The notes beneath the pieces are model-generated. The model was not told where the DNA came from. It saw only the letters and a list, made by a program, of their open reading frames with translations, and made no database searches. The translations under genes were made by a program, and so were the position numbers. A DNA stretch of 64,000 nucleotides from a virus. Location of the stretch: the IMG/VR virus record IMGVR_UViG_3300036716_000695, positions 26,103 through 90,102 of that record; one strand, given 5' to 3'. Every line of letters starts with the position of its first letter. Position 1 is the stretch's first letter. Of the stretch, positions 3,041 through 32,281 are shown piece after piece.

Positions 3041-4655
3041 AACTAGAACACTCTAATATATTACGAGCAAAGTCTTGAGCACTACTCTTACTAAACTGAT
3101 AGTACAAAGTCTTTACACCTTCTTCCCAAGCATACATGTAAAGCTTATTAATATCTTTAGCTGATACTGACGGGTCAATCATTAAGTTTAATGACTGTGA
3201 CTGGTCAATGTACTTTTGTCTTTGTGCTGCTTGAAGTACGAGCTCTTTTGGAGATATCTCAACAAAAGACTTGAACACTGCTTTAGTAGGGAAATCTAAG
3301 TGTTGCACACTACCATCTTTCTTTAGGATAGACTTCCAAGTCTTGTCTGTATTTAGACCATAGGTTTCAAGTTCCTCTTCTAAGAAGGGATTCTTGTAAA
3401 TAGTCTTAGACTTAGCAAGATCCTTAATAAAGTAGTTAGACTTAATAGGCTCTATACCCATAGACACGGCACCGTGGATAAATGAACTAGACTTAGTAGG
3501 AGCAATAGCCATAAGAGTGGTGTTAGCATATCCTTCTCTAAGAGAAGTGTATCCATACTCATTATGCAATTCTCTAGAAGCAATCTCACTTCTATCTTTA
3601 AGTGTTCTAAAAATTTCACTGTTCAATCCTTTAGCTTGCAATGAGTCAAACTCAAGAAGCTTTGATTGAAACAAAGAGTGATATCCTAACACACCAAGAC
3701 CAATTGCTCTATGCTTCTCAGCAAAGTTAAACGCTCTCTTCATGCCCGGCATAGTCTCAGACTTAATAATGAATTCATCCATTACTGCATTTAAGAAATA
3801 CACATATGTTTCAATTGCATCAGTTTCTTTTATCTGGTCCCAATGTAATAGGTTAATAGAACCTAAGCAACATACAAAAGAATTATAACTATCAGTAGGA
3901 AGCTGGATCTCTGAACATAAATTAGATGCTGTGATATCCATTCCAAGTTCTTTATAAGGAGAATTGTTATTGGAGTTATCCTTAAACATAATATAAGGAA
4001 ATCCAAACTCACTCCTGTTCTGAATGATCTTAGCCCATACTTTACGTTTAGCTTTATCTCCTTCCTTCATTTCATTCATCCATTGATCAGTAACTGTAAC
4101 ACCATACTGTAAATTTTGTATAGGATTACCCTCTGTACCAATATCTAAGAACTCTAAGATATCCGCATGCTCAACTGGTAGGTATACTGCACAAGCACCA
4201 CGTCTGGCCTCAGACTGCTTGCAAACGTCCACTACAGTATCATATATCTTAGCGTAGTGCACTGGACCATCAGCAAAACCACCTGTAGATATTTCAGTTC
4301 CTCTTGCTCTAATGTTGCCAATAAAAGCACTTGTACCTCCGCCATATTTACTCATCATTCCAATTTCACGGCCTGCATTTAATATGCTATCTAAGTTATC
4401 ATCAACATTAGATCCGTAGCAGCTTATAGGTAAACCTTTTTGTTTACCAAAGTTAATCCATACAGGAGTAGACAAAGAGTAAAATCCTCTTGCCATATAA
4501 TCCTCAAACTTTTCTGCAAAGCCTTTTATATTCAAATACTTTTCTGCTTTAATAGCAATGTCTTTGATTCTTTGTTCAGGGCTTTCTGATATATACCCTC
4601 TTGATAAAAATGTGCGGCTGTCTTCATTCAGCCAGTAGTATTTATTATATTCCAT
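3030..4655 (-). CDS. nrdA: Ribonucleotide reductase class Ia alpha subunit (short form, no obvious ATP cone)
   Basis: Motifs PISCY, GGG, SNLCSEI (thiyl Cys), AIGLGVLG, APTKSSS, IDQSQSLN, GVKTLYY and C-terminal CSSCEG. Confidence 0.95.
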   Translation of the reverse strand: MEYNKYYWLNEDSRTFLSRGYISESPEQRIKDIAIKAEKYLNIKGFAEKFEDYMARGFYSLSTPVWINFGKQKGLPISCYGSNVDDNLDSILNAGREIGMMSKYGGGTSAFIGNIRARGTEISTGGFADGPVHYAKIYDTVVDVCKQSEARRGACAVYLPVEHADILEFLDIGTEGNPIQNLQYGVTVTDQWMNEMKEGDKAKRKVWAKIIQNRSEFGFPYIMFKDNSNNNSPYKELGMDITASNLCSEIQLPTDSYNSFVCCLGSINLLHWDQIKETDAIETYVYFLNAVMDEFIIKSETMPGMKRAFNFAEKHRAIGLGVLGYHSLFQSKLLEFDSLQAKGLNSEIFRTLKDRSEIASRELHNEYGYTSLREGYANTTLMAIAPTKSSSFIHGAVSMGIEPIKSNYFIKDLAKSKTIYKNPFLEEELETYGLNTDKTWKSILKKDGSVQHLDFPTKAVFKSFVEISPKELVLQAAQRQKYIDQSQSLNLMIDPSVSAKDINKLYMYAWEEGVKTLYYQFSKSSAQDFARNILECSSCEG

Positions 4656-4661
4656 ATTGTT

Positions 4662-4853
4662 TTAGTTTTTATTTCCGTTTTGTTTCCAATCAATCCAAAA
4701 GCCTATAGCCACCATTAAGTGTAAAAAAATAGACAGTGCATATTCATAAAAGTTATGCCAAGTAGCAAAATGCAAATGTACATGACCAATTATCCAAAAA
4801 GGTATAGCCATTTGCTGACTATACCATATAAGAAAAAATTTTATAAACTTCAT
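4662..4853 (-). CDS. Small two-TM membrane protein between nrdB and nrdA
   Basis: 63 aa with two hydrophobic segments, His-rich (GHVHLH, LH), tightly packed between the RNR genes. Confidence 0.6.
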   Translation of the reverse strand: MKFIKFFLIWYSQQMAIPFWIIGHVHLHFATWHNFYEYALSIFLHLMVAIGFWIDWKQNGNKN

Positions 4854-4872
4854 CTCTCTTTGGTGTTAAAGG

Positions 4873-5853
4873 TTAAAAAAGATCATCTTCTGTAATAGAC
4901 TTACTTTTTTTATTATAATCAACACTCTTCTTATAAAAGAAATCTCCTTCTTTAGTGCCAGTAATTTCTATATCAAACCATTCTACTGCTTTCAATATTT
5001 CCTGATTTACCTCAAAGATGGGCTTCATACCTATCTTATCTAAAGAGTTGTTGAATCTGTTTCTTATAAAATGTTGTATTGTTTCTTTAGGTAGAAAACT
5101 AAGTTCTCCTTTCTCAAAGATCCAATCAAGTATACCACACTCTGCACTATAAGCTTTCATGCATGCAGAGTAGATCAAATCTTCAAATTCTTTATCAAAC
5201 CATTCTGGATTTTCTCTTTTGATTATATTAATAATCTCAGCACCAAAATTACCATGTATCTCCTCTTCTTTACTGGTGGCCTCAACAACATTAGATATAC
5301 CTTTAAGTACATTCTTTTCTTTGTTAAAGCTCATCATAATTAAGAACTGACTAAATAGACTTACGTGCTCTATAAATAAAGAGAATAATAATACAGACTT
5401 AGTATACATTTTATTGTCTCTAGAACGTGTACCATCTAGGTACTTTTTTAAGTACTTAAGTCTACCTTCTATTGCAGGCACTTCAACCACTGATTGAAAC
5501 TCTTTTTCTAAACCTAAGATTCTCAACAGTCTAGCATAAGCATCTTTGTGCCTAACTTCTGATTCAGCAAATGTAAATCCTACATCACCAATCTCAGTAA
5601 TAGGCATTCTTTTATATAGATCACCCCAAAAAGTTTTTACATTAACTTCTATCTGGGCAATTGCTAACATAGTTTTTTTAATAACATCCCTTTCTGCTGA
5701 TGTGATAGTTACTTTAAAATCTTGTATGTCTTCTGTAAAATTAAACTCAGTATCAATCCAATATGAATGTCTAATAGCATCTTTGTATGCTAGCAATTGA
5801 GGATACTCATAAGGTAATATGTTTTGTCTTGGTAAGAAAATGTTTTTATTCAT
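4873..5853 (-). CDS. nrdB: Ribonucleotide reductase class Ia beta subunit
   Basis: Ferritin-like iron ligands ESEVRHKDAY (radical Tyr), FIEHVSLFSQF, KEEEIHG, and C-terminal DFF..Y. Confidence 0.95.
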   Translation of the reverse strand: MNKNIFLPRQNILPYEYPQLLAYKDAIRHSYWIDTEFNFTEDIQDFKVTITSAERDVIKKTMLAIAQIEVNVKTFWGDLYKRMPITEIGDVGFTFAESEVRHKDAYARLLRILGLEKEFQSVVEVPAIEGRLKYLKKYLDGTRSRDNKMYTKSVLLFSLFIEHVSLFSQFLIMMSFNKEKNVLKGISNVVEATSKEEEIHGNFGAEIINIIKRENPEWFDKEFEDLIYSACMKAYSAECGILDWIFEKGELSFLPKETIQHFIRNRFNNSLDKIGMKPIFEVNQEILKAVEWFDIEITGTKEGDFFYKKSVDYNKKSKSITEDDLF

Positions 5854-5873
5854 ATGATTATTTTTTAATGTGG

Positions 5874-5907
5874 AAAAAAAAACTGCATCCCTTTTGAGAG
5901 ATACAGC
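5874..5907 (-). terminator. Intrinsic terminator immediately upstream of nrdB
   Basis: The minus strand reads GCUGUAUCUCU-CAAA-AGGGAUGCAGU followed by a U-run. Confidence 0.7.
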
Positions 5908-5945
5908 TCTTGTTCAATTTAAGAAATATAACTGTAAATATAAAA

Positions 5946-6134
5946 TTATTGAGTCATATTAGCAAAAGAAATTGTGAAAAATATAAGACCAAACTCTACT
6001 CCAAGTACTGGACGATAGATGTCATCTTCACATAAGACTTCACAGTTTACTATTTTAATGCCTAATAGTGTTTCTGTAGGAAGAAACTCTATAGCTAGTT
6101 TATTTTTAAAAATTAAAGGATTTACTTTTTTCAT
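5946..6134 (-). CDS. Hypothetical protein
   Basis: 62-aa ATG ORF downstream of a TATCTTTG promoter-like element. Confidence 0.6.
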   Translation of the reverse strand: MKKVNPLIFKNKLAIEFLPTETLLGIKIVNCEVLCEDDIYRPVLGVEFGLIFFTISFANMTQ

Positions 6135-6144
6135 AAAATTAGAA

Positions 6145-6180
6145 TTTGTATATTAAGTATATACCATTATTGCAAAGATA
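6145..6180. promoter_or_regulatory. Face-to-face promoter pair: + strand TTTGTATATTAAG (6145-6157) and - strand TATCTTTGCA (6171-6180)
   Basis: The - strand element matches the Bacteroidetes -7 consensus TAnnTTTG. The + strand element is the recurrent GTATATT motif. Confidence 0.6.
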
Positions 6181-6191
6181 TATATTTTATT

Positions 6192-6575
6192 ATGAGCCAT
6201 TGGAAAAAAATTAAGAATTTATTTTGGTACTCTGACAGTGAGCCAACTGAATTGCTTATATCTTTCTGCTATATATTGGCTCTTCCAGCATGTATGATAC
6301 AAGAATTCAGCAACCCTAATATTATTTTTATAATAGGGGGTGTTCTCATAGGTTTATTTCAGTTGTGGTCAGTTTTATATAATGTAGTAACAAAAAATTG
6401 TTTAAGTTATAGACTTCTTGCCACAAAGCTCTCATCAATATTAGCCGTTATAGTTGTAGTTAATCTATATATAGAAGGTGTAATGAGAGGAACCAATATT
6501 GAGTGGATAATCATTATGCTTTTTGCTTTTTGGAATACAATAAGATTGTTTAAAGAAAAAATAGAAAGAGAATAA
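6192..6575 (+). CDS. Four-TM membrane protein (holin/antiholin candidate)
   Basis: Four hydrophobic segments; TAATG-coupled to the next gene. Confidence 0.6.
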   Translation: MSHWKKIKNLFWYSDSEPTELLISFCYILALPACMIQEFSNPNIIFIIGGVLIGLFQLWSVLYNVVTKNCLSYRLLATKLSSILAVIVVVNLYIEGVMRGTNIEWIIIMLFAFWNTIRLFKEKIERE

Positions 6576-6886
6576 TGGATCCTGTAGTACAAATAGTTAT
6601 AACAATAATAGGGGTCTTAGGCTCTGGTGCAATCTGGAAATATCTTGAAGCAAGGTTAAGAGTGAATTCAGATGAAAAAAAATTAGAATTACAAAACAAT
6701 GATGGCGTGCAATATAGAGACGATTTAAAAAACAGAGTTAGAAACCTTGAGGCAATGCTAGCTAACTCAAGCAATGAGAAAGACACGCTTAGACAGCAAG
6801 TACTAGACTTAGTAGCTGAAGTTAATACATTAAGAGTTAAAGTTGAGTTTCTTGAAAAAGAGAACCAACGTTTAAAGAATAAGTAA
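6575..6886 (+). CDS. Single-TM coiled-coil protein (holin or spanin-like)
   Basis: N-terminal TM (IVITIIGVLGSGAIW) followed by a heptad-rich coiled coil. Confidence 0.55.
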   Translation: MDPVVQIVITIIGVLGSGAIWKYLEARLRVNSDEKKLELQNNDGVQYRDDLKNRVRNLEAMLANSSNEKDTLRQQVLDLVAEVNTLRVKVEFLEKENQRLKNK

Positions 6887-6896
6887 ACTTTAAATA

Positions 6897-6930
6897 TTTG
6901 GAAAAGTTTCTTAAATTTTGTATATTATAG
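6897..6930 (+). promoter_or_regulatory. Bacteroidetes-type promoter (TTTG-N20-TATATTAT)
   Basis: -33 TTTG at 6897-6900 and a -7-like TATATTAT at 6921-6928, 20 nt apart. Confidence 0.6.
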
Positions 6931-6954
6931 TATATAGTAACTTAAATATTTAAC

Positions 6955-7116
6955 ATGATAAAAAGATTTTTTTATTTAGTATGGACAAGCAGTCTCCAAG
7001 ATATATGGAGATACTTGTGGTCTTTAACATCAATAGATGAGAAGACTGTTGCAGTTGTTAAAGAAACAAAGAAAAGAACCAAGGCTGTTAAAAAGGCTAT
7101 TAAAGGAAAAAAATAA
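6955..7116 (+). CDS. 53-aa basic protein (absent from the ORF track)
   Basis: MIKRFFYLVWTSSLQDIWRYLWSLTSIDEKTVAVVKETKKRTKAVKKAIKGKK. It follows the promoter and ends one base before the next ATG. Confidence 0.65.
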   Translation: MIKRFFYLVWTSSLQDIWRYLWSLTSIDEKTVAVVKETKKRTKAVKKAIKGKK

Positions 7117-7117
7117 C

Positions 7118-7264
7118 ATGGGTGATTGGACATTAGAAATAGCATTCCATTGGCCTCATAACAGATTAGCTCTGGGATGGGAAACTATAATGCCTGATGA
7201 AGAGTACAATTATAGTACTATAAAAGTCTATTTATTATTTGTAACACTCACTTTAGATTTTTAA
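7118..7264 (+). CDS. Small hypothetical protein (MGDWTLEIAFHWPH...)
   Basis: ATG 7118 follows the previous stop directly, so it is preferred over the track start at 7037. Confidence 0.6.
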   Translation: MGDWTLEIAFHWPHNRLALGWETIMPDEEYNYSTIKVYLLFVTLTLDF

Positions 7265-7267
7265 ACT

Positions 7268-7495
7268 ATGAAAAAGATAAATGTAAAAACACAAAAGGGA
7301 TTAGTTGCTTTAAAAAAGAAAGCTCCTGAAGTTGTTAAAGATATGGGTTATTTCAAATTAGGTGGTGGCACTCATAATACATTTAGTGGTTTACCTAAAA
7401 AACAAATTGGTGGTACATCTCCTGAGTTGATGCCAACAACAGAGAATAAAAACAATGCTGTAGATAGTATTAAGAAAAATTCTTTTGTAAGATAA
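7268..7495 (+). CDS. Small basic hypothetical protein
   Basis: 75-aa ORF, TAATG-coupled to the next gene. Confidence 0.6.
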   Translation: MKKINVKTQKGLVALKKKAPEVVKDMGYFKLGGGTHNTFSGLPKKQIGGTSPELMPTTENKNNAVDSIKKNSFVR

Positions 7496-8421
7496 TGAAT
7501 ATTTTAACTGACATATTAAGTTTATTTAAACGCAAGAAATTTGTTAAAGAAGCTAAAGCTAATGATGTATTAGTTTTAGGTCTTAATGAAGAACCTGACA
7601 TGACGGGTGTTGCATCTCCAATTCCTTATAAAAGTGTAAGGTTAATAAAGGTGAAAGATTTGGTTGTAAAAGGTGAAGCATGTGAATATAATAATGTAGT
7701 CAATGGTACAGGTACTAAACCTTCTTATGTATATAGAGATACTACAGAAGATCCATGCTCAGTTAATTTACGTTCAATTGCAGCTACTGGTAATTATATT
7801 AGTGTATTAACAAATAATAATGAAATTGAAATTTCTACAACTGCTGAACCAAATAGAGCAGCAAATGTAGGTAGAGGAACTGGTGTATTTAGAGATAAAA
7901 CAGGAGCTTTATTAAACTTCAAATCTCTTGTTGGTGGTGGTGATGTTACTATAAGTGACGATGGTGATACAATACAAATTACTTCAACCGGTGGTGGTGG
8001 TGGAGTAACTAGCATTATTGCAGGTGACGGTATCTCTGTTAATAGATCAACAGGTGATGTAACTGTAACAGCTACAACTGCTCCTCCAACTTTATATGCA
8101 GCCGGGTTAACACAATTTAATAATAATGCACCAACCTTGAATGTATTTGCTAATTCAATTAATAGAATTGTAACAGCTACATATGTAGATGTTGGTGTAT
8201 ATCAATTTGAATTTAGTGTACCAGTTAATATTAATAGAACAGCAATAAAGTGTTCATTAACAGGACAATCTCATCCGTTTTTGTTTAACGTTTCTAATCA
8301 AACATCAAACGGATTTAGAATATATACATATATTGTTGATGAGACAGGCGCAACTGTTCTTAAGGATGGTATATTATTTAAGACACCATTAGAAATTATT
8401 GTTTACCCAGAAGAACCATAA
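7495..8421 (+). CDS. Putative fibre/structural protein
   Basis: Fibre-like segments (ANVGRGTGVF..K.G..LNFKSL; GGGGVTSIIAGDGISV). Shares its N-terminal motif with the 9831 and 41669 ORFs. Confidence 0.6.
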   Translation: MNILTDILSLFKRKKFVKEAKANDVLVLGLNEEPDMTGVASPIPYKSVRLIKVKDLVVKGEACEYNNVVNGTGTKPSYVYRDTTEDPCSVNLRSIAATGNYISVLTNNNEIEISTTAEPNRAANVGRGTGVFRDKTGALLNFKSLVGGGDVTISDDGDTIQITSTGGGGGVTSIIAGDGISVNRSTGDVTVTATTAPPTLYAAGLTQFNNNAPTLNVFANSINRIVTATYVDVGVYQFEFSVPVNINRTAIKCSLTGQSHPFLFNVSNQTSNGFRIYTYIVDETGATVLKDGILFKTPLEIIVYPEEP

Positions 8422-9830: not shown

Positions 9831-12800
9831 ATGAGCATATTTATACAAGAGGTATTAGGCCTTTTAACAAGAAAAGAAATCAAGAAAGAAATTAATCCTA
9901 AAACAGATTGGTTACAACTTGGTCACAAAAAACAAAGTAAATTAACTGGTACATCCTTTACACCAAAAATGGAACCTTATGCTATTAAAGCACAAGATTT
10001 TATTTGTACGGTGACTAAAGGGTTAACTAGAACTATACAAGGATCAGGAAAAATAGGTTTTGTTCCTGTATATACTGAAACAGATGGAGTATGTAGTCTA
10101 AAAGCATTAAAAGATAGTATCATAACTCAAGATCTTGCCAATCAAACAATTTCTGTAAATGGAAATCTTCTTGTTAAAGGTGATACATCATTAAATGGAA
10201 ATGTCAGATTAGGAACTGGTGGTATAGGTTTTAAAACATCTTTTGAATCAGTAGTTGTAGATGTTAATGGTCAACAGGGTCAACCAAATCAAGTTCTTAT
10301 TGCTCAACCAGATGGTACCGTAATATGGAAAGACCAAGCCGGTGGTGGTACTTGTGTATGGCAAGTTGGTGGTGATAATGGTTTTGTTGTAGATTGTAGT
10401 GATGTAGTTTTATTTATAGGTGGTGATAAGCTTACTGCATTTCCAAATGCTGCTAATAAAAGTGTTACATTCAATCATGATAAAACGGTTGTTAATGTAG
10501 TTTCTCAAAATGTTGATCCAGGTTTTGGGGATTCTTTTGATGCTGTCTTTGAAGTAAGAGTAGATGATTATGGTCATGTAGATGGAATTACTACAAGTAA
10601 AATTACTTTACCTGAAGAAACTACTTATACTCTAAAAGGAGAAATATCAGGCACAGATGATTATGCTATATCCTTATCAGATTCAAATGGAGGAACAAGT
10701 GAGGTACTCTTAAAAGCAGGAACTAATATTACTTTACAAGATGACGGTAATGCTACAGTAACAATAAAAGCAGCAGGTGGAGGTTCACCAGTAATGACAT
10801 CTACAGTTACCGGAACAGGTAAACTATGGAGTGATGTTGTACAAGCACAACCAGCAGCAGCTGTATCAGATACAGATCAAAGAACATATGGAGTTCAATT
10901 TAATGATGCATCACAACTTGTTGTTAATGTACCATGGGTTGAAGGATCAGGTTCTGTTGTAGTTGGTAACCCAGGTAATCCTACAATAGATTTAACTTCT
11001 ATAAGTATAGATGGTACTGTTTATGGTATTGCATCAGGCGGTGGAGGATCAGTAACCAGTGTTGGTTTAGCTGCACCTTCAGCATTCACTGTAACTAATA
11101 GTCCTGTAACAAGCAATGGAACATTAACTCTTGCAGGTGCAGGAGCAACAACAGATTATATAGATGGGACAGGTGCTTTACAAGCTTTTCCTTCTATTCC
11201 AAGTGTACCAGCAAATATAGTTGAGACAGTAGATACACAAAATGGTACATACATTGATATGACACCAACAGGTGCTGTAGATGGAGATGTTGTTGTAACA
11301 GCAGAATTATCAGCAGTAGACGGAGCAGATACTTCAGGTAGATTCTTAAGTAAAGATAACGTATGGTCAGCAATTCCTGGAGGTAATGCAGGAACTGTAA
11401 CTAGTGTTGGCTTAAGTACAGATATTGCAGCATTCACAGTTGGAAGTTCTCCTGTAACAGATAATGGTGTAATAGAACTAAACCGTAATGGAGGAACTGC
11501 AGGTCAGTTTTTAAGACAAGATGGTAATTGGGCAGATATTCCTTCAGGAGGAACAGTAACTGCTCTTTCAACAGAAGTAACTCCAGTTGTAGCAGATTCA
11601 ATTGACTTTACTGTAGCTGATCCAACAACAACGCCTAAATTAACTATAGACTTTAAAGGAGTAGCTGGACAGTATATAAATGGAGAAGGTCAATTAGAAA
11701 CATTCCCTACTATCCCACCGGCATCAGAAGATGTTAAGTTTAAAATTGATGCAGCAGATACTGTAGCAGGATATTGGACTGATAAAATAACAATAGGTTC
11801 AGGTTTATCAGGTTCAGTTAATACAGATCCAAGTGGTGAAAAAACATTAACAATAAGTGCTGTATCAGTTACTACAGTAAATAGTATTAAGGTAGGAAAC
11901 ACTACTACTTCTGGAGCGTTTGAGTTTACAGGACCGGGTGTTACAATGGATACTAATCCAAATCCTCAACTAATTACTTTTGCAAGTGTATTATCATTAG
12001 GAGCAACAACAGCAGGTGATGCATTAGATGTTGCAGTAACAAATGATAGTAGTAATACAGGAGATAGTACACTAGACTTTACTTGGGCAGGATCTGCATC
12101 TGAGTATATAAACGGTCAAGGTAACTTAGTTACTTTCCCAGCAATAACAACAGGTACTGTTGAATCAATAAGCACATCATGGCCAAGCGGTGCAAATGTA
12201 GCAATGACTTTAACAGAAGTAAATTTATCTGGACCAGATGTACAGCTAAATTGGAATGTTCAAGGTACTACAGCACAATACATAGATGGTACTTTTAAAC
12301 TACAAACATTCCCAACAATACCAGCAGAATATACTGGTTGGAGTTTAGTTGGAGATTTAGGAAGTGCACAACAAATAAAAACAGGTAATACTGCATTAAT
12401 AGCAGGTGGTGTTGGTTTAACATCAACAGCAAGTGCAACAGATACATTAACTATTGATTTAGATGACACAGCAGTAACTCCAGGTGCATATAGTAATGCA
12501 GATGTAACTGTAGATCAGCAAGGTAGAATTATAAGTATCCAAGATGGAGCAAGCTCAGCAAGACCTTATAAATCATATGTTGCTAACTTCTCAATTGTTA
12601 ATAATGTTGTGGCTGTTAATATACTAGAAGATGAGCTTCAAGTACAAACTAATTGGTCTGATGACAGCCTTGGTAAAATATCTATATCATTCCGTCAAAA
12701 TTTTGACAAGAAAAGAGTTATGGTGTTCATTAATGGAATGAGTGGTGAAAAAGGAGGCGGTGGTCAAATATTCTTTGACGATGTAATTTCTGGAGTATCA

Positions 12801-12937: not shown

Positions 12938-12975
12938 GAAGAGGGTAAGCAGAAATGTTTACCCTCTTTCTTTTT
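12938..12975. terminator. Intrinsic terminator between convergent blocks
   Basis: AAGAGGGTAAGCA-GAAA-TGTTTACCCTCTT followed by a T-tract. Confidence 0.85.
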
Positions 12976-13396
12976 ATTTACCCCATTTGTTTCTATTAAT
13001 CAGCATAGATATTATTGAGTAGTTAGATAAATCAATCCATGAATCTTCTAGACTTTCATTTTTAGGATTACGGTTTGACTGTACAATATTCAGTATTCTT
13101 TGTATTTTGTCATTACTACGAAACCATATACCAAGCAAACTCAGCCTACGGTTTTCTTTTAACTCTGTATCTTTACCAAGAGTAATGTTTTGAGGCCCGT
13201 AGTCTAATTGCTTCATACAAAACAATGTGTATTGTTCCTGCTGTATCTCTTTAAACTCTTTTGTTGTTTCAGGATACAACATCTCACAAGATGCTACAGG
13301 ATCCATAGTATCTTCTTGTGTGTCACTAAACGGGTGAGCAAATGGTTCTATTTTTTTATTCATCTTTAGTATATTTATTTTTACTTTGTCTAACAT
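12974..13396 (-). CDS. DUF1599 / nucleotide-modification-associated domain protein
   Basis: KQLDYG..N, R.NDKIQR, NESLEDSWIDLSNYSII pattern. Confidence 0.65.
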   Translation of the reverse strand: MLDKVKINILKMNKKIEPFAHPFSDTQEDTMDPVASCEMLYPETTKEFKEIQQEQYTLFCMKQLDYGPQNITLGKDTELKENRRLSLLGIWFRSNDKIQRILNIVQSNRNPKNESLEDSWIDLSNYSIISMLINRNKWGK

Positions 13397-13983: not shown

Positions 13984-14838
13984 TTACAAAATGCATTCAT
14001 CAATTATAATGCTTTGCTTTTCTAGTTCTTCATCAATTTCAATTGTCTCTCCATTGATACCTACTAGCTCCCATTTTTCAGTATTAGTTGTTTGATTGTT
14101 TACAACATCAGACATCATAAAATCATGAAAGTTCTGAGAATCTTGTAACCAATCCCTTGGTGTAGATAGTTTTAATGCATGTGTTACGTGATTGTAAAAA
14201 CTCCAAGCATTGTTATTATCTGTTAAGTAATCATAAGAAGGTTTATTAATCTCTTTCTTAATTATAGACATCTGTGAAGAAGTTACAATCTCTTCATCTA
14301 TAAATAGTCTACCAACTAAAGCTGCTTGCTCTGTCTTACTTAACAATGTAGACTTTAATGCATCTCTATCTTTAAGAATGCGTGAATAATGAACTTCTCC
14401 ATTCTTAATTTGATTGCTCAGCTGCATTTTAATATCATGACCTGCGGATCCTGTGTGTTTTCTTTTAAAGTTCATCATGTCTCCAGCTACCATACCATTG
14501 TTACATACCATAACATATGCACCAATTGCACACTGAAATCTTGTACTCTTATCATAAGAGTTTGTCCAGGCAAACATCATCCCTAATTCTCTTTCTTTAG
14601 AGATATCTTCATCAGTTGTCTGAGAAGGATAGATATGATATATGCCTTGTGCTACATTGGCATTCATGTTTGCTCTATATAATTCTTTACGAATAGTAAA
14701 TCCACTATTCTCCAATAAATTTTTTGTGTCATCTATCACTTGTTTATGTGATATGACTGTATAACTCTTACCATGTTTAGGTAAAGGTTGACTTTCTAAA
14801 TAATTCTGTGTTGTTTCTACTGCTCTTTTATAACGCAT
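13984..14838 (-). CDS. DUF932-like protein
   Basis: NSYDKS, G..V.VCNNG, KHTG and W.FYN.VT..LK motifs. Confidence 0.7.
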   Translation of the reverse strand: MRYKRAVETTQNYLESQPLPKHGKSYTVISHKQVIDDTKNLLENSGFTIRKELYRANMNANVAQGIYHIYPSQTTDEDISKERELGMMFAWTNSYDKSTRFQCAIGAYVMVCNNGMVAGDMMNFKRKHTGSAGHDIKMQLSNQIKNGEVHYSRILKDRDALKSTLLSKTEQAALVGRLFIDEEIVTSSQMSIIKKEINKPSYDYLTDNNNAWSFYNHVTHALKLSTPRDWLQDSQNFHDFMMSDVVNNQTTNTEKWELVGINGETIEIDEELEKQSIIIDECIL

Positions 14839-14888: not shown

Positions 14889-15722
14889 TTAAAATATATA
14901 TCTGATTGTTTTTATAGAAAAATACTTTGAATAAATTTCTTTAAATTCAGATAACAACCTTCCTTTATGTTCTAAAGGATATCTCATAACTCCTGATTGA
15001 TTCTTAATTTCATAAGATCTTCTCATCAACTCTCTTGCTTCTGGTGTTGTTTTAATCATTTGCTTAACATGATTAGTTAAAGCAATAACTTCACATTTAT
15101 TTTCACCTGCTACATCTTTTACCATAGAAAAAAGATTATTATACTCTTCTTTCCAACCGGGGTAAAAAATTAAAGGGCTATAATTTAAATGTACTTCCCA
15201 GCCCAATTTCTTAAGCCTATTAATATCAGCTATACGGCTTACTATCTTTTGCATCTTAGGTTCTAATATATTAGAATACTTCTGAGGCATAAGACTTACA
15301 CGTACCCGTGGTGGTTTATTAAAGTGATTTACATCTAACTTTAACAACCCTGGATACTTAGTGGCCATAGTACTATTAAGTTGTGGGTGATTATCAAACC
15401 TCTTAAGATAATCAATCAAAGGTTCAGGCATGTGTTTCTGCATCAGTACTAAATCTGAATTGCAGGCAACATCTACCATAGTATATATAGGGTCTTGTTG
15501 ATCAGGGACTTTAGTAAATTCCTTTTCCCATTCAACAACAGACTCATAAATCTCATCAACGTTCTTGTTAACAAAAACTCTTTTACCATTATATCTAGAC
15601 ATATAACAATATGTATCTACACAGCCTCCAAAACACCCATATATGATGTTTGGAGCTATGCAATTACTACTATTATTATTTGTTTTGGTAATTAAAGTTT
15701 TGGTTTTCTGAACTTTAATCAA
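14889..15722 (-). CDS. Spore photoproduct lyase-like radical SAM protein
   Basis: IAPN..YGC...C....CY cluster motif, DVACNSD, ATK, RVRVSLMPQ, LEP...RI, HLNYSPLI. Confidence 0.8.
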   Translation of the reverse strand: MIKVQKTKTLITKTNNNSSNCIAPNIIYGCFGGCVDTYCYMSRYNGKRVFVNKNVDEIYESVVEWEKEFTKVPDQQDPIYTMVDVACNSDLVLMQKHMPEPLIDYLKRFDNHPQLNSTMATKYPGLLKLDVNHFNKPPRVRVSLMPQKYSNILEPKMQKIVSRIADINRLKKLGWEVHLNYSPLIFYPGWKEEYNNLFSMVKDVAGENKCEVIALTNHVKQMIKTTPEARELMRRSYEIKNQSGVMRYPLEHKGRLLSEFKEIYSKYFSIKTIRYIF

Positions 15723-16026: not shown

Positions 16027-16689
16027 TTAATTGTTTTTTAATAATTCTAATACTTCAGTCAATGATTCATGACGGTGGTTATCTTCTAGTACAACTTTAT
16101 ATACATGAAGAGAACTTGTAATCTTAGCAACTTCATTAATTGCAGAATAATTTTTGTCTTTTAAATCTATTTGTTGATTGTCTCCACAAAAGATCATCAT
16201 TGAATCTTTACCTAGTCTACTTAAAGCCATTGAAAACTGAGAGCGTGTTAAGTTCTGAAACTCATCTACAATAACAACAGAGTGATCAAATGTCCTTCCT
16301 CTAAAATGAGATAAAGAAACCAATTCTATTTGTTCTTCAGATTCAAGCTTCTCTAAAAGCTCAGGTTTATTATAGACCTTACGCATATTAGATTTAATAG
16401 GTACCAACCAAGGTTCCATCTTTTCTTTTTCAGAGCCAGGTAAAAAACCATTATCTTCTGTTGCCACAGTAGGCCTAGTAATAATAATCTTATTGTATTG
16501 TCTCTTAAAAAATTGATCTAGTGCTATTTGGACAGCAAGTAGTGTTTTACCACTACCTGCGTTCCCATGTATAAAACTAAAAGGATGTTTAAGTATTTGT
16601 TCTTTTGCAACCTTTTGTTCTTCTGATAATGTAATACTAAATCTGATAGACCCTTTAGGTGGTCTCTTTGTTATATTTGTTTTTGCCAT
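16027..16689 (-). CDS. phoH: PhoH-family ATPase
   Basis: GNAGSGKT, TRP, GFLPG, RGRTF, DEFQN, RLG, GD..QID. Confidence 0.92.
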   Translation of the reverse strand: MAKTNITKRPPKGSIRFSITLSEEQKVAKEQILKHPFSFIHGNAGSGKTLLAVQIALDQFFKRQYNKIIITRPTVATEDNGFLPGSEKEKMEPWLVPIKSNMRKVYNKPELLEKLESEEQIELVSLSHFRGRTFDHSVVIVDEFQNLTRSQFSMALSRLGKDSMMIFCGDNQQIDLKDKNYSAINEVAKITSSLHVYKVVLEDNHRHESLTEVLELLKNN

Positions 16690-18695
16690 TAGAATAGTGT
16701 TAATTGATTTGGAGCAACATCAATAATATTATTAATCTCTTGCTCTATAGCTTCAAGATAATATTTTTTATCAATATCATAGTTTTCCCACTTAGGTTCT
16801 AATTGCATATCATTAAATATTGACTGCAACCATTTGCCAGCTTCTAACTGTATCTCTCTTTTATCTTTCTTGTTAACTTTAAGAATCTTTACACCGGATT
16901 TAGATATAAAATATCTATTAATCTTCTGTAATTTTTCTTCATCAAATATACCATTCTTTATTTGTCTAGCAACCTGTTGCCAATCACCTTTTGATTTTCC
17001 ACCAATACAATAATCTAATATGTTTTTATTTGTATCAATATAATCTTCAGGTAACATATCATGAACAAAGTAATGATAGATTGCCTTTGGTATAACAAGT
17101 TTAGATTTATTCTTGTGCAACTGCAGGTTATGAAAATCAAATCTACCCTTAAGTTTTACCGGGGCAAAACTAAACTTATCATTCTCTACTTTAAATAAGT
17201 AATGAGGATTGTCAGTTTTTAGTTTTCTCCAAGTAGATATATCTACATCAACCCACTTATTAATACCAATGTAGTTGTTAACATCACCAATAACCATCTT
17301 CTGATATTCATCATGCTCTAAATTAAGATTGGTTTTCTTTTCCCATTCTTCACATATAAGCATGTACTCATCATAAAATGCCTTTGGTATTATAGTTTCT
17401 ACACCATCTGTGTTTTGTAATAAAGCAATAGCACCCGGTATACGCTCCATAATTTGCTCATAAAGCATCATTAGGGATAGTTGACCATTGATTGTTATTC
17501 TCATACATAACTCAGGATCATAAAAGAAGCTATTTTCATCATTGCTAAGACCAAAAGTAGAATTAAGTATAATCTTATATACATAGTTCATTGGATTGCT
17601 CTTAGGAATCTTCTTACGCTCTTCAAAGAACCACTCATATTGATTACAGAATTCTTCTTTAGGGAAATGACCCGGAGACCACTTGTTTTTAATAGCCAGA
17701 TTAGGATAAAAAGATGTTACATCAGAAGACATAATCATCATGTCATCATCCGGTTCATAAACACCTTTCTTTATAGCACCATGAACACCACCTAAACCAA
17801 AGTGTGTATTGACACCCTTATAGTTTATGTTGTATTTAAAACTACCCTTAAGACTACCTGCGTTAACTTCTAATGAAGCAAACCTATCAAACAATACCTT
17901 AAACTCTTGAGATGAGAAAGAAATGTATGGTAATATAATATCCTTAATCTTAATTGTATCCCTATAAGTTCTCATCTGTTTGAGATCTCTTTTAGGAATA
18001 TTTAAGTTTCTAGATAAATAATATCCAAATATCTCTTTACTAATCCTAGGCTCTGAGGCACTAAACATGTTAATATTGTATGTACTTGTCAATTCTTTTC
18101 TTAAAGCTACTTGAGATCTTGATCTGTTATAGATTTCTTTTGTAGACTTAACATCATTAATGCAGTATTCAAGTATAGTGTCTAGATCTTTTTGAGTTCT
18201 GATTTCAGTTTCATGATGAATAGGCATATCTAATATATTCTGCCAATCCATACTATACTGAATCCATTTAAGACTAGAACGTTTAGCCGGGTTATCCCAA
18301 TGGTGCATTTTAAATAAATCTATTTGACCTATTCTCATCTTCCATTGTGGATAATCACTAAACTCTTTATTGTTTGATTTCTGTATACATCTCTGTGCAT
18401 ACTTATAAATAATATTAGCAACTAGATGACCATCAAGACCTAAACCTTCTTCATCTTTCCATTTACTAACATTATCTAATATATAGTGAGTTACTTGCGC
18501 ATCAAATGCTAATCCATTATAGGATATATGCCACTCTTTGTTTGTGATGTTGTCTTCTAGAAAGTTTATAAATTCTGTCTGATCATTTCTTAACCGTGAT
18601 ATTACAAATATCTTAGTCTCTGTAGTTTTATAATTTTCAAAAACACCAGTAAAACAATCATAAAGTGTTTCATAATCCATTACCCAATGTTTCAT
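16689..18695 (-). CDS. DNA polymerase family B (crAss-like) with 3'-5' exonuclease domain
   Basis: Exonuclease motifs DYE, YNG..FD, YCINDV. Polymerase motifs DVTSFYPN, KIILNSTFG, NTDG. Confidence 0.9.
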   Translation of the reverse strand: MKHWVMDYETLYDCFTGVFENYKTTETKIFVISRLRNDQTEFINFLEDNITNKEWHISYNGLAFDAQVTHYILDNVSKWKDEEGLGLDGHLVANIIYKYAQRCIQKSNNKEFSDYPQWKMRIGQIDLFKMHHWDNPAKRSSLKWIQYSMDWQNILDMPIHHETEIRTQKDLDTILEYCINDVKSTKEIYNRSRSQVALRKELTSTYNINMFSASEPRISKEIFGYYLSRNLNIPKRDLKQMRTYRDTIKIKDIILPYISFSSQEFKVLFDRFASLEVNAGSLKGSFKYNINYKGVNTHFGLGGVHGAIKKGVYEPDDDMMIMSSDVTSFYPNLAIKNKWSPGHFPKEEFCNQYEWFFEERKKIPKSNPMNYVYKIILNSTFGLSNDENSFFYDPELCMRITINGQLSLMMLYEQIMERIPGAIALLQNTDGVETIIPKAFYDEYMLICEEWEKKTNLNLEHDEYQKMVIGDVNNYIGINKWVDVDISTWRKLKTDNPHYLFKVENDKFSFAPVKLKGRFDFHNLQLHKNKSKLVIPKAIYHYFVHDMLPEDYIDTNKNILDYCIGGKSKGDWQQVARQIKNGIFDEEKLQKINRYFISKSGVKILKVNKKDKREIQLEAGKWLQSIFNDMQLEPKWENYDIDKKYYLEAIEQEINNIIDVAPNQLTLF

Positions 18696-31606: not shown

Positions 31607-32281
31607 TTACCAGTCTATCAAAGTTTTACCTTGTTTATTTAGTTCTATGTTAGTCTTGTTAAACACGTCATTTGAATCCCAAACACCACCTCTATATGCA
31701 GCTGATGCAGGATGTGTACACTTAAGTATCTTTTGATTAGATATTAGTCTTTCCCATGCTTCTGCTTTTTTACCCATTAATATGAAAACAATATCTTTAT
31801 TGTCTTGATTAATCTTACTAAACAAATGTTCAGTAAAAGGTTTCCAATTCCAAAAATGAGACCCTATTTTATTTACTTCAACTGTAAGAGCTGTATTAAT
31901 TAATAATACGCCTTGGTTAGCCCAACATCTTAAATCAGTATGATCCGTATCAATTGCTTTATTAATATATTGTAAAGACTTTTCTACTTTATCTTTTTTA
32001 CTACAACTAAATGCTAAACCATCAGCTGATCCTAATTGAGGATAAGGATCTTGTCCTACTATAACAACTTTTAGATCATCATATTTACATTCCTTAAATG
32101 CATTAAAAATGTCTTTAAACTTTGGAGTAAATCTTTTACCCTGTTCAACTAAACTTACTAATGAATCTGTTAGATCATCATAAAGTTTACTATCTATGTA
32201 AGGAAATAATACATCTGCCCAACCTGAGCTTTCTATATCTTTTTTTAAATTGTCTTTTAGAATTATAAGGTTTTTTTCCAT
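31607..32281 (-). CDS. ung: Uracil-DNA glycosylase family 1
   Basis: GQDPY, GLAFS, WANQGVLLINTALTV, HPAS. Confidence 0.93.
   Translation of the reverse strand: MEKNLIILKDNLKKDIESSGWADVLFPYIDSKLYDDLTDSLVSLVEQGKRFTPKFKDIFNAFKECKYDDLKVVIVGQDPYPQLGSADGLAFSCSKKDKVEKSLQYINKAIDTDHTDLRCWANQGVLLINTALTVEVNKIGSHFWNWKPFTEHLFSKINQDNKDIVFILMGKKAEAWERLISNQKILKCTHPASAAYRGGVWDSNDVFNKTNIELNKQGKTLIDW

Follow-up and report, generated by a model that had tools for sequence, protein, structure and literature searches.

Locus and gene neighbourhood

The window, i.e. the whole stretch of 64,000 nucleotides analysed here, carries a radical SAM gene resembling spore photoproduct lyase (SPL) on its minus strand (14889..15722; 277 aa, TTG start, from the ORF list). 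The TTG start codon (15720-15722) overlaps the TGA stop codon of a MazG gene (15719-15721) in the sequence TTGA (15719..15722, minus strand, read from the sequence). The translational coupling to MazG described in the initial annotation therefore exists in this genome, as a 4-nt start/stop overlap. PhoH lies just upstream, and PhoH and MazG here separate the SPL-like gene from its conserved upstream neighbour, a DNA polymerase gene (16689..18695, minus strand) recognised by tblastn at 32-34% identity to annotated phage polymerases. The most conserved downstream neighbour is a DUF932 gene (13984..14838, minus strand; PF06067, 60.1 bits).

Neighbours were counted in 82 related loci spanning at most +/-8 kb, several of them one-sided; a gene was scored as present if tblastn detected it with E <= 1e-5 at any point of the locus. 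DUF932 occurs in 62 loci and the DNA polymerase in 61, MazG in only 27 and PhoH in 10, some loci ending early upstream. Many of the related loci have the SPL start directly abutting the DNA polymerase stop, and no MazG cluster is among the recurrent neighbours of further viral relatives. The functional weight placed earlier on the MazG gene is thus not borne out, MazG being a minority neighbour and the polymerase often the direct one. DUF932 also adjoins an SPL-like gene of 33% identity in the viral locus L083, and turned up in 12 of another 82 viral loci. A structure model of its product (pLDDT 80.9) matched none of the solved folds searched (Foldseek best E 1.2e-2, VIA-align best Z 5.1) and contributes nothing on mechanism.

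The surroundings are those of replication and repair, comprising the DNA polymerase, a DnaB-like helicase, a ResIII/Helicase_C helicase, AAA_24 and PD-(D/E)XK. A match to DUF1599 (Nucleotide modification associated domain 1; Nmad1-like) at 12974-13396, 1.5 kb downstream of the SPL-like gene, reaches 24.7 bits at a cut-off of 25. The SPL-like gene of L083 comes directly after genes for GATase_6 (glutamine amidotransferase) and Amidoligase_2 (amidoligase). Neither a photolyase FAD domain nor Pyr_excise was detected in five records of the phage group, four of them 98-100% complete, so that the phage is without another recognisable UV-dimer enzyme.

Family placement and predicted fold

The ORF scores 61.9 bits (E 6.5e-17) against the Pfam SPL family PF20903, above the gathering threshold of 27; the genome-wide profile search gave 60.8 bits for the same pair. 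SPL is also the sole strong sequence match of the protein in the PDB, both by single-sequence phmmer (E 2.6e-8) and with the family profile (E 2e-28 over chain 94-366). The best NCBIfam match is TIGR03886 with 141.2 bits over profile positions 61-346, below the cut-off of 437.55, and the score on TIGR04070 (Firmicute SplB) is 63.6 bits at an equivalog cut-off of 400. Matches to the NCBIfam SPL models begin at position 61-82. Phylogenetically, the short forms are placed next to the clade of long bacterial TIGR03886 proteins. The phage ORF is a real member of the SPL fold and family, of the radical SAM type, and sits in a TIGR03886-like branch, not with Firmicute SplB. PHROGs contains no family for it.

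The AlphaFold model (pLDDT 96.1, pTM 0.93) is predicted to form the partial (beta/alpha)6 TIM-barrel core of the radical SAM superfamily. VIA-align superimposes model residues 1-277 on residues 62-341 of Geobacillus SPL (4fhc) with Z 26.4, an rmsd of 2.4 A and 265 aligned residues; the runner-up is RlmN (Z 14.1), and RlmN, PFL-AE, viperin and NifB all range within Z 12-14. Foldseek likewise places 4fhc first (E 4e-16), the next fold being NifB (2.7e-4). The SPL-family radical SAM identity assigned in the initial annotation is supported by profile, PDB sequence match and both structural comparisons.

Two parts of SPL are reduced. The phage protein is without the first ~61 SPL residues, as the model spans SPL 62-341 only, and consequently does not possess the complete N-terminal alpha/beta domain of four strands and three helices. 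Furthermore, the beta-hairpin, a putative lesion-flipping element in SPL, is shortened (residues 236-248, ...E-I-K-N-Q-S-G-V-M-R-Y with the conserved R247-Y248 at its end; 14979..15017, minus strand, from the alignment), with model strands at 238-239 and 245-247 only. The profile alignment to 4fhc places a Tyr opposite Tyr305 in longer family members and none in the phage clade; the long SPL hairpin with its Arg304/Tyr305 tip is replaced by a shorter one with no aromatic tip.

Spacing of the cluster cysteines

Residues 30-40 read C-F-G-G-C-V-D-T-Y-C-Y, i.e. the cluster motif is C30-x3-C34-x4-C39 followed by Y40 (15606..15635, minus strand, read from the sequence for C30 to C39). The motif departs from the canonical radical SAM CX3CX2C in its spacing only. 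Relative to SPL C90/C94/C97 it holds a two-residue insertion: phmmer against the PDB opens a two-residue gap in G. thermodenitrificans SPL between cluster cysteines two and three, a register reproduced with the family profile. The three cysteines are located in the equivalent loop and do not vary in 50/50 aligned sequences as well as in 40/40 distinct gapless phage copies.

The CX3CX4C reading of the initial annotation holds, and a survey of this spacing among homologues had been suggested with it. In all 120 close homologues (>=80% identity) the motif reads C-x-G-G-C-x-x-[ST]-Y-C. Of the 150 representative clusters listed, 83 possess the motif, with X4 in 22, X3 in 2 and X2 in 59. Legionella, Lewinella and Odyssella likewise have the X4 spacing, in short genes on their chromosomes. 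On a tree from a quick search, with the motif columns kept in, X4 and CX3CX2C switch at least four times among close relatives. CX3CX4C in the phage SPL family is not an accident; it is conserved and recurrent.

Other radical SAM proteins share with the phage protein three cysteines near the barrel N-terminus in non-standard spacing, such as the CX4-11CX2C clusters of RadicalSAM.org and ThiC (CX2CX4C). The variants in PMC9477430 concern only the first spacer (CX4, 5, 6, 7, 8, 9 or 11, then CX2C), and ThiC, Dph2 and PhnJ are set aside there as differently built. The phage protein, in contrast, lengthens the second spacer (C-x-x-[ST]-Y-C) in an otherwise ordinary SPL barrel, an arrangement that has no tested counterpart in the set of barrel-type enzymes given by PMC9477430. 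Our literature search did not find CX3CX4C together with radical SAM; judged by titles and the beginnings of abstracts, papers with this cysteine spacing in any spelling concern other proteins.

Catalytic and substrate residues

The segment D-V-A-C-N-S-D (residues 84-90; 15453..15473, minus strand, from alignments) contains C87, the counterpart of the H-donor Cys140/141, and S89/D90, the counterparts of Ser142/Asp143. Both phmmer and the family profile align A-C-N-S-D with A-C-T-S-D of the SPL Cys140 segment; Cys140 of Geobacillus SPL is Cys141 in B. subtilis (PMC3467042). C87, N88 and D90 are retained in 40/40 distinct phage copies, S89 in 35/40, the rest having Thr. The H-donor Cys is hence kept, as had been suspected from the motif.

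Residues of SPL are assigned to cluster, SAM, lesion and H-donation in PMC3467042, with Ser142/Asp143 as SAM-amino contacts. Identical aligned pairs are found for the cluster and its tyrosines (C90/94/97 = C30/34/39, Y96 = Y38, Y98 = Y40), for SAM and H-donation (C140 = C87, D143 = D90, K174 = K122, S195 = S143) and for the lesion (R193 = R141, E268 = E211, Y339 = Y275, S79 = S18). These SPL-identical residues, Y38 and Y40 among them, occur in 40/40 distinct gapless phage copies, a count that excludes S18, which is nearly invariant in the 50-sequence alignment. Going by the alignments, S89/D90, K122 and S143 would be the SAM-binding residues, C87 and Y40, invariant in the phage clade, the putative fourth cysteine and Tyr98 of SPL, and the invariant R141, E211 and Y275 the probable readers of the lesion bases, with Asn15 in place of Ser76 in the Ser76-Ser79 loop. 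Y275 lies in the C-terminal I-R-Y-I-F preceding the stop codon (14889..14903, minus strand) and is matched to Tyr339 by the profile alignment; SPL Tyr339 hydrogen-bonds the 5'-dihydrothymine (PMC3467042).

The phosphate contact is different. Arg273 and Lys309 hold the bridging phosphate in SPL (PMC3467042), and Arg273 is replaced by an invariant Thr (T216) in the phage family; R247 may stand in for Lys309, in an uncertain register. Among 78 aligned family members, 14 have Glu instead of the H-donor Cys, which suggests that the chemistry varies within the SPL family. Median pairwise dN/dS is 0.087, calculated from 51 of 83 copies after dropping gapped, partial and N-bearing ones (40 distinct gapless sequences; 612 of 780 pairs usable, dS 0-2.5).

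Distribution and bacterial relatives

The shortened SPL-like family is present in >750 viral contig stretches and virtually absent from deposited phage genomes. A tblastn search of 50,697 deposited phage records, a collection that may omit records near the window, returned nothing for the query or for the central member P0130, and only two weak matches, both uncultured faecal phage records, for a viral member with canonical spacing. P0140, P0155 and P0126, each used on its own to scan viral contigs, yielded no relatives. Metatranscriptome contigs from four runs of four studies match stretches of the ORF with 95-100% identity, which is consistent with its transcription; gaps in this coverage are meaningless and DNA carry-over is possible.

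Long bacterial relatives score 526-600 bits on TIGR03886 (cut-off 437.55), other short forms 257-321. The bacterial relatives are stand-alone chromosomal genes. Their neighbours are uninformative: ABC transporter, SDR, M28 peptidase, DoxX, DUF2461, DinB_2, Exo_endo_phos, GGDEF and, once, SAM synthetase. Our literature search turned up no account of an SPL repair enzyme encoded by a phage, and a JBC 2026 review names spore photoproduct lyase in its reference list only.

Proposed function and alternatives

Spore photoproduct (SP) has been described in DNA that is dry, frozen or in the A form. A shortened, strongly conserved SPL relative with unusual cysteine spacing is probably a dark UV-repair route for the phage, and, judged from the retained residues, the function we lean towards is repair of an SP-type thymine dimer by a reaction that needs no light. 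The gene encodes an N-terminally shortened SPL member in the replication module of an abundant uncultured marine phage of ~115 kb. We infer that C30, C34 and C39 coordinate a [4Fe-4S] cluster at the X4 spacing, in a loop two residues longer than usual, and that SAM sits on the fourth iron, contacts S89/D90, K122 and S143, and is cleaved there. The resulting 5'-deoxyadenosyl radical would take an H atom from C6 of a flipped-out dimer of the 5-thyminyl-5,6-dihydrothymine type, the presumed substrate, held by R141, E211, Y275 and the N15-S18 loop. The methylene bridge would then break, and C87 would give the H atom back to the allylic thymine radical, with Y40 as a likely relay. Used after injection, alongside the replication genes, such an enzyme could reverse UV cross-links in phage DNA without light. 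Counted against SP repair are the scores far below both NCBIfam equivalog cut-offs, the change of Arg273 to T216, the shorter hairpin and the unprecedented second spacer. The states of DNA in which SP is known, the amidotransferase and amidoligase genes in L083 and the DUF1599/Nmad1-like gene downstream also weigh against it.

More tentatively, we propose that sunlit, aerosolised or frozen virions gain the SP-type methylene-bridged dimer in their packed DNA, and that the shortened SPL family reverses it in the dark after injection, part of the family through a CX3CX4C [4Fe-4S]/SAM site. Our literature search, judged by titles and the beginnings of abstracts, found no measurement of spore photoproduct in virions.

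A rather unlikely alternative is that the same radical chemistry, with an altered DNA-binding mode, serves a lesion different from canonical 5R-SP. Candidates are intrastrand cross-links, further pyrimidine adducts of the methylene-bridged or C5/C6 kind, and SP when the DNA is single-stranded or replicating. This alternative would fit a protein in which the base contacts are kept and the backbone and flipping elements changed (Arg273 to Thr, a short non-aromatic hairpin, no residues 1-61), a phage from sea water with hydrated DNA, and a family in which the H-donor Cys can give way to Glu. However, R141, E211, Y275 and the S18 loop, which read the SP thymines in SPL, are invariant or nearly so, and no other substrate is known for SPL relatives except for the very remote M6 gp53.

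M6 gp53 itself is the model for a second alternative, that the enzyme modifies (tailors) thymine in DNA, which we consider quite improbable. Apart from this precedent, the DUF1599 match just below its cut-off and the pairing of GATase_6 with Amidoligase_2 in L083, a pairing which the available part of PMC8989533 lists in metagenomic hypermodification clusters, would agree with such a role. Amidoligase_2 is absent from this record, though, and the relationship to gp53 is minimal (BLASTP E 0.8; hhalign probability 84% over 55 columns only). Genes for 5-hmdU modification, as in a gp53-type cluster, were not found: ThyA-type dUMP hydroxymethylase (PF00303) and ThyX (PF02511) are missing from this record and from 4-5 relatives 98-100% complete, Tet_JBP (PF12851) from five records including near-complete relatives, and single-protein searches of limited reach and with no positive control gave no M6 gp51 (aGPT-Pplase2) or gp54 (5-HMUDK) in five records. 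The suggestion in the initial annotation that the enzyme modifies nucleotides found no support in these searches. With the H-donor Cys and the second-base loop retained and the bacterial relatives stand-alone, a gp53-type modification enzyme was rejected.

Inactivation of the cluster site by the altered cysteine spacing, leaving a relic or a non-radical role in DNA binding only, would accord with the departure from CX3CX2C and with the variants of PMC9477430, which alter the first spacer and not the second; it is hardly credible, and was rejected, given the dN/dS of 0.087 and the invariance of the checked cluster, SAM and substrate residues apart from S89, while X4 also persists in motif-bearing clusters and bacterial chromosomes, interchanges repeatedly with the canonical spacing and keeps the Tyr before the third cysteine. 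A joint action with MazG on the nucleotide pool, e.g. on a damaged or modified dNTP, is suggested by the start/stop overlap and the nearby PhoH of this genome, but is very improbable and was likewise rejected, as the association with MazG is not conserved and fold and residues match a DNA-lesion enzyme.

If the phage family is active in dark repair of SP-type dimers, UV photochemistry in packaged viral DNA would extend to a lesion that nobody measures in virions, and marine phages would gain a light-independent means of surviving sunlight, which is relevant to how fast viruses decay at the ocean surface. The catalytic core of SPL would then be functional without half of the N-terminal domain, and a radical SAM enzyme of the barrel type would accommodate two additional residues in the 'CX2C' half of its cluster loop. 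The X4 variant would escape motif-based searches such as those behind RadicalSAM.org, and the SPL-like family provides natural pairs of close relatives, X2 versus X4, for mechanistic comparison.

Comparison with known systems

SPL is the textbook example of a 'spore-only' repair enzyme; to our knowledge, no radical SAM enzyme besides SPL and M6 gp53 is known to act on DNA. With SplB/SPL of Bacillus and Geobacillus (4FHC/4FHD/4FHF; TIGR04070; PF20903) the phage protein shares the barrel fold, the position of the cluster loop and equivalents of Tyr96/Tyr98, Cys140/141, Ser142/Asp143, Lys174, Ser195, Arg193, Glu268, Tyr339 and Ser79. It differs in an identity of ~20%, the missing residues 1-61, CX3CX4C, Thr for Arg273, a shorter hairpin and no equivalent of Tyr305; its gene, unlike SplB, is phage-borne in a replication module and not under sporulation control.

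Closer are the TIGR03886 proteins of non-sporulators (Myxococcus; Cytophagales such as Larkinella and Rufibacter), which have the I-R-Y-I-F C-terminus, the invariant T216 and a D-I-G-C-N-S-D-type segment in common with the phage protein. Their long forms comprise 343-390 aa with the cysteine motif at about residue 84-129 in canonical spacing, whereas the phage protein starts at profile position 61. We know of no TIGR03886-type protein with demonstrated activity. An 'SPL family protein' of the non-sporulating Curtobacterium is induced by UVC, induction being all that the available part of PMC12029717 reports.

According to the available part of PMC8989533, M6 gp53 is a radical SAM enzyme that isomerises N-alpha-glycinylthymine in thymidine hypermodification. 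Like the phage protein it is phage-encoded, and it was modelled on SPL by its authors and targets the thymine C5-methyl in DNA; it has 480 aa and canonical CX3CX2C, as against 277 aa and CX3CX4C here. The gp53 gene clusters with aGPT-Pplase2, a PLP enzyme, a 5-hmdU kinase and thymidylate synthase, of which the gp51, gp54 and PF00303 counterparts were not found for the phage group.

Other virus-borne enzymes for UV pyrimidine dimers include photolyases and T4 endonuclease V. These act on cyclobutane dimers by light and flavin or by glycosylase/AP-lyase chemistry, unlike the reaction proposed for the SPL-like phage protein.

The SPL-like gene and its module

The gene for the radical SAM protein resembling spore photoproduct lyase (SPL) lies on the minus strand at 14889-15722, exactly the coordinates of the initial annotation, and is an ORF of 277 residues with a TTG start. 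Reading this ORF confirmed both motifs noted there, the cluster motif C-F-G-G-C-V-D-T-Y-C-Y (CX3CX4C) at residues 30-40 and D-V-A-C-N-S-D at residues 84-90. The TTG start and the TGA stop of the MazG gene directly upstream (100 aa, Pfam MazG 33.5 bits) have the letters TTGA in common. Upstream of MazG are a PhoH gene (171.8 bits) and the gene of a 668-aa DNA polymerase, which shares 32% identity with the polymerases of Cellulophaga phage phi14:2 and a few further phages. A DUF932 gene (13984-14838, minus strand) is located downstream. Farther downstream, 12974-13396 (minus strand) encodes a 140-aa protein that matches phrog_1485 and scores just under the cut-off for DUF1599 (Nucleotide modification associated domain 1, Nmad1; 24.7 bits, cut-off 25). 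The remainder of the module comprises replication and nucleotide metabolism genes, i.e. class I RNR, primase, DnaB-like helicase, AAA_24, PD-(D/E)XK, a UDG-superfamily protein (31607-32281, minus strand) and an SNF2-like helicase.

The IMG/VR virus record has 90,102 bases and a completeness rating of 78%; the window covers its bases 26103-90102. Records of close relatives measure 113-116 kb and are rated 98-100% complete, one of them with direct terminal repeats. Marine metagenome runs from many studies contain the 2.2-kb stretch with the SPL-like gene. In four metatranscriptome runs, each from a different study, contigs match portions of this stretch at 95-100% identity, which is compatible with transcription but no proof of it.

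Family and fold

The query matches Pfam SPL (PF20903) with 61.9 bits (cut-off 27). Its scores for NCBIfam TIGR03886 'spore photoproduct lyase family protein' (141.2 bits, profile positions 61-346) and TIGR04070 'spore photoproduct lyase' (63.6 bits) are below the cut-offs of 437.55 and 400, and it belongs to neither curated equivalog. The sole significant PDB sequence matches are the SPL entries of Geobacillus thermodenitrificans, with E 2.6e-8 for the single sequence and E 2e-28 for the 50-sequence family profile. An AlphaFold2 model built on the same family alignment is very confident (pLDDT 96.1, pTM 0.93); Foldseek places SPL at the top (E 4e-16), followed by NifB (2.7e-4), and VIA-align superimposes model residues 1-277 onto SPL 62-341 (Z 26.4, rmsd 2.4 A, 265 residues aligned), with RlmN as runner-up (Z 14.1). 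Fold, PF20903 and PDB matches thus agree on the SPL-like radical SAM identity proposed initially. Because model and profile align from about SPL residue 62 onward, the query is an SPL without the first ~61 residues, about half of the four-stranded N-terminal alpha/beta domain described in PMC3467042. It is a truncated, phage-borne SPL-family enzyme of a TIGR03886-like branch, with the second cluster spacer lengthened.

Genomic context in viruses

Relatives were located in 82 viral loci, 80 at 76-99% identity and two distant, with neighbours identified by tblastn. DUF932 is a neighbour in 62 loci, DNA polymerase in 61, MazG in 27 and PhoH in 10; the polymerase stop directly adjoins the SPL start in many of them. 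Eighteen close loci differ in setting, e.g. L044 with the order helicase, SPL, UDG-superfamily, DnaB-like; some 2 kb separate its UDG-superfamily gene (11095-11895) from the SPL-like one. The translational coupling to MazG noted initially holds for this genome through the TTGA overlap, but not for most loci, and is local to this lineage.

A second viral scan, for which the alignment was chosen so that the pattern misfits the query clade, gave at least 600 matches, all 600 confirmed, and 80 loci were kept. Together with the distant loci L083 and L084, spacing was CX3CX2C in 77, CX3CX4C in four and unreadable in one. Recurrent neighbours are a DnaB-like helicase (46 loci), a ResIII/Helicase_C helicase (38), DUF932 (12), AAA_24 and family A DNA polymerase. 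The SPL-like family is thus widespread in uncultured phages and always in replication modules; in the deposited phage genomes searched it is virtually absent. Photolyase FAD and Pyr_excise domains were found in none of five records of this phage group.

Of all neighbours, DUF932 accompanies the SPL-like gene most constantly across divergent phages (62/82 loci of the first set, L083, and 12/82 others). No solved fold matches the model of the DUF932 protein (pLDDT 80.9), the best values being E 1.2e-2 in Foldseek and Z 5.1 in VIA-align.

The CX3CX4C spacing

The two residues that the query has in excess of SPL are placed between the second and third cluster Cys, and the Tyr directly preceding the third Cys is kept (C-x-[GAN]-G-C-x-x-[ST]-[YF]-C). 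The survey among homologues suggested initially found CX3CX4C in 120/120 at ≥80% identity. Of 199 representative clusters (50% identity level), the best 150 were surveyed; the motif is present in 83 of these, as CX3CX2C in 59, CX3CX4C in 22 and CX3CX3C in two.

A scan of bacterial species-representative genomes gave at least 594 pattern matches, 574 confirmed, of which 80 were kept: 67 canonical, 12 with CX3CX4C and one fragment. The canonical ones are mostly long forms (343-390 aa) of Cytophagales, Sphingobacteriales and Myxococcus. One CX3CX4C row comes from a phage-like contig of 100 kb and has 72% identity to the query; the other eleven are genes of ~291 aa from Lewinella, Neolewinella, Cesiribacter, Legionella, Odyssella, Paracaedibacteraceae, Rickettsiaceae, Burkholderiales and Janthinobacterium- or Neisseria-labelled MAGs. 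The spacing is not restricted to phages and occurs in bacterial chromosomes too.

In a quick IQ-TREE tree of 80 rows, motif columns left in, a starred clade unites the long bacterial forms, and another grouping (SH-aLRT 94) comprises 55 forms, most of them short (about 280-300 aa). The CX3CX4C state requires at least nine changes, four forced by starred branches. The homologue P0123, for instance, shares 49% identity and an equally short hairpin with the query, yet has CX3CX2C. Median pairwise dN/dS among phage copies is 0.087, i.e. strong purifying selection. From these sequences we conclude that CX3CX4C is a genuine variant of the predicted cluster loop, one that is tolerated and has arisen repeatedly, not a sign of decay. 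In the extracts of the RadicalSAM.org perspective (PMC9477430), spacing variants concern the first spacer only (CX4 to CX11, then CX2C), and ThiC, Dph2 and PhnJ are set aside. A literature search found no paper joining 'CX3CX4C' and 'radical SAM'; judged from titles and abstract starts, papers with any spelling of the motif concern other proteins.

Several further members were observed alongside. In Candidatus Odyssella thessalonicensis (L093, 4249-6861) a short CX3CX4C-type gene lies directly downstream of an S-adenosylmethionine synthetase gene. A contig labelled 'MAG: Clostridium sp.' (L085, 100,089 bases) and a Pseudomonadales bacterium MAG (P0008) carry 72-97% identical copies on contigs of ~100-115 kb; both have the appearance of phage genomes that ended up in bacterial bins, which makes their host labels unreliable. 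Some Myxococcus-type and metagenomic members have much longer frames upstream of the SPL domain (L157 5254-6852, L163 4342-6852 and P0161; 532, 836 and 451 aa), which may be fusions or merely early in-frame start codons.

Repair or modification

Sequence and model predict an SPL-like mode of action as the most likely one for the query; that it repairs a non-canonical lesion appears unlikely. A serious rival follows from phage M6 gp53, an SPL-like radical SAM enzyme that isomerises N-alpha-glycinylthymine (Lee et al. 2021, PMC8989533), although such a thymine-modifying role is more doubtful still. In its favour, the SPL-like gene of distant locus L083 comes after a glutamine amidotransferase and an amidoligase (3285-7987, also in L205; GATase_6, Amidoligase_2, SPL-like with CX3CX4C, DUF932, then DnaB), a pair included among the metagenomic modification clusters of PMC8989533, and the DUF1599-like gene is close by in the window, a gene present in only 5/82 related loci. 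However, gp53 has no BLASTP similarity to the query (E 0.8), and hhalign matches 55 columns only. The hmdU-pathway genes are absent: ThyA-family and ThyX from this record and five relatives 98-100% complete, Tet_JBP from this record and four such relatives; Amidoligase_2 is also absent from this record, and searches with M6 gp51 (aGPT-Pplase2) and gp54 (5-HMUDK), with no positive control for either, were empty. Moreover, the long relatives in bacteria are solitary genes scoring above the TIGR03886 cut-off, and a protein bearing the TIGR03886 product name is reported to be induced by UVC in Curtobacterium, which does not sporulate (PMC12029717).

Comparison with Geobacillus SPL

Residue roles follow the relevant passages of Benjdia et al. 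2012 (PMC3467042), mapped through HMMER alignments with chain numbering minus 27. The query differs from SPL in several positions: Arg273, a phosphate contact, corresponds to an invariant Thr (T216) in the query family, Ser76 to Asn, the beta-hairpin is several residues shorter in the query clade, and this clade lacks the aromatic residue that longer members of the family place opposite Tyr305. In 14 of 78 aligned family members (e.g. P0155, P0157, P0183), including some passing or approaching the TIGR03886 cut-off, the H-donor position is occupied by Glu (D-I-G-E-x-[ST]-D), which makes this sub-branch unable to use a Bacillus-type Cys donor.

The query retains the H-atom donor Cys140 (Cys141 of B. 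subtilis) as C87 of A-C-N-S-D, so the Cys141 segment had been assigned correctly. Equally retained are the cluster Cys90/94/97 (C30/C34/C39), Tyr96 and Tyr98 (Y38, Y40), Ser142/Asp143 (S89/D90), Lys174/Tyr175 (K122/Y123), Arg193 (R141), Ser195 (S143), Glu268 (E211), Tyr339 (Y275) and Ser79 (S18), the last on the loop holding the 3'-thymine; the second Tyr of the radical relay is likewise present. The 50-sequence alignment shows no variation at C30, C34, C39, R141, E211 and Y275, and all retained residues, S18 not counted, occur in 40/40 distinct phage copies, except for S89 (35/40, the others Thr).
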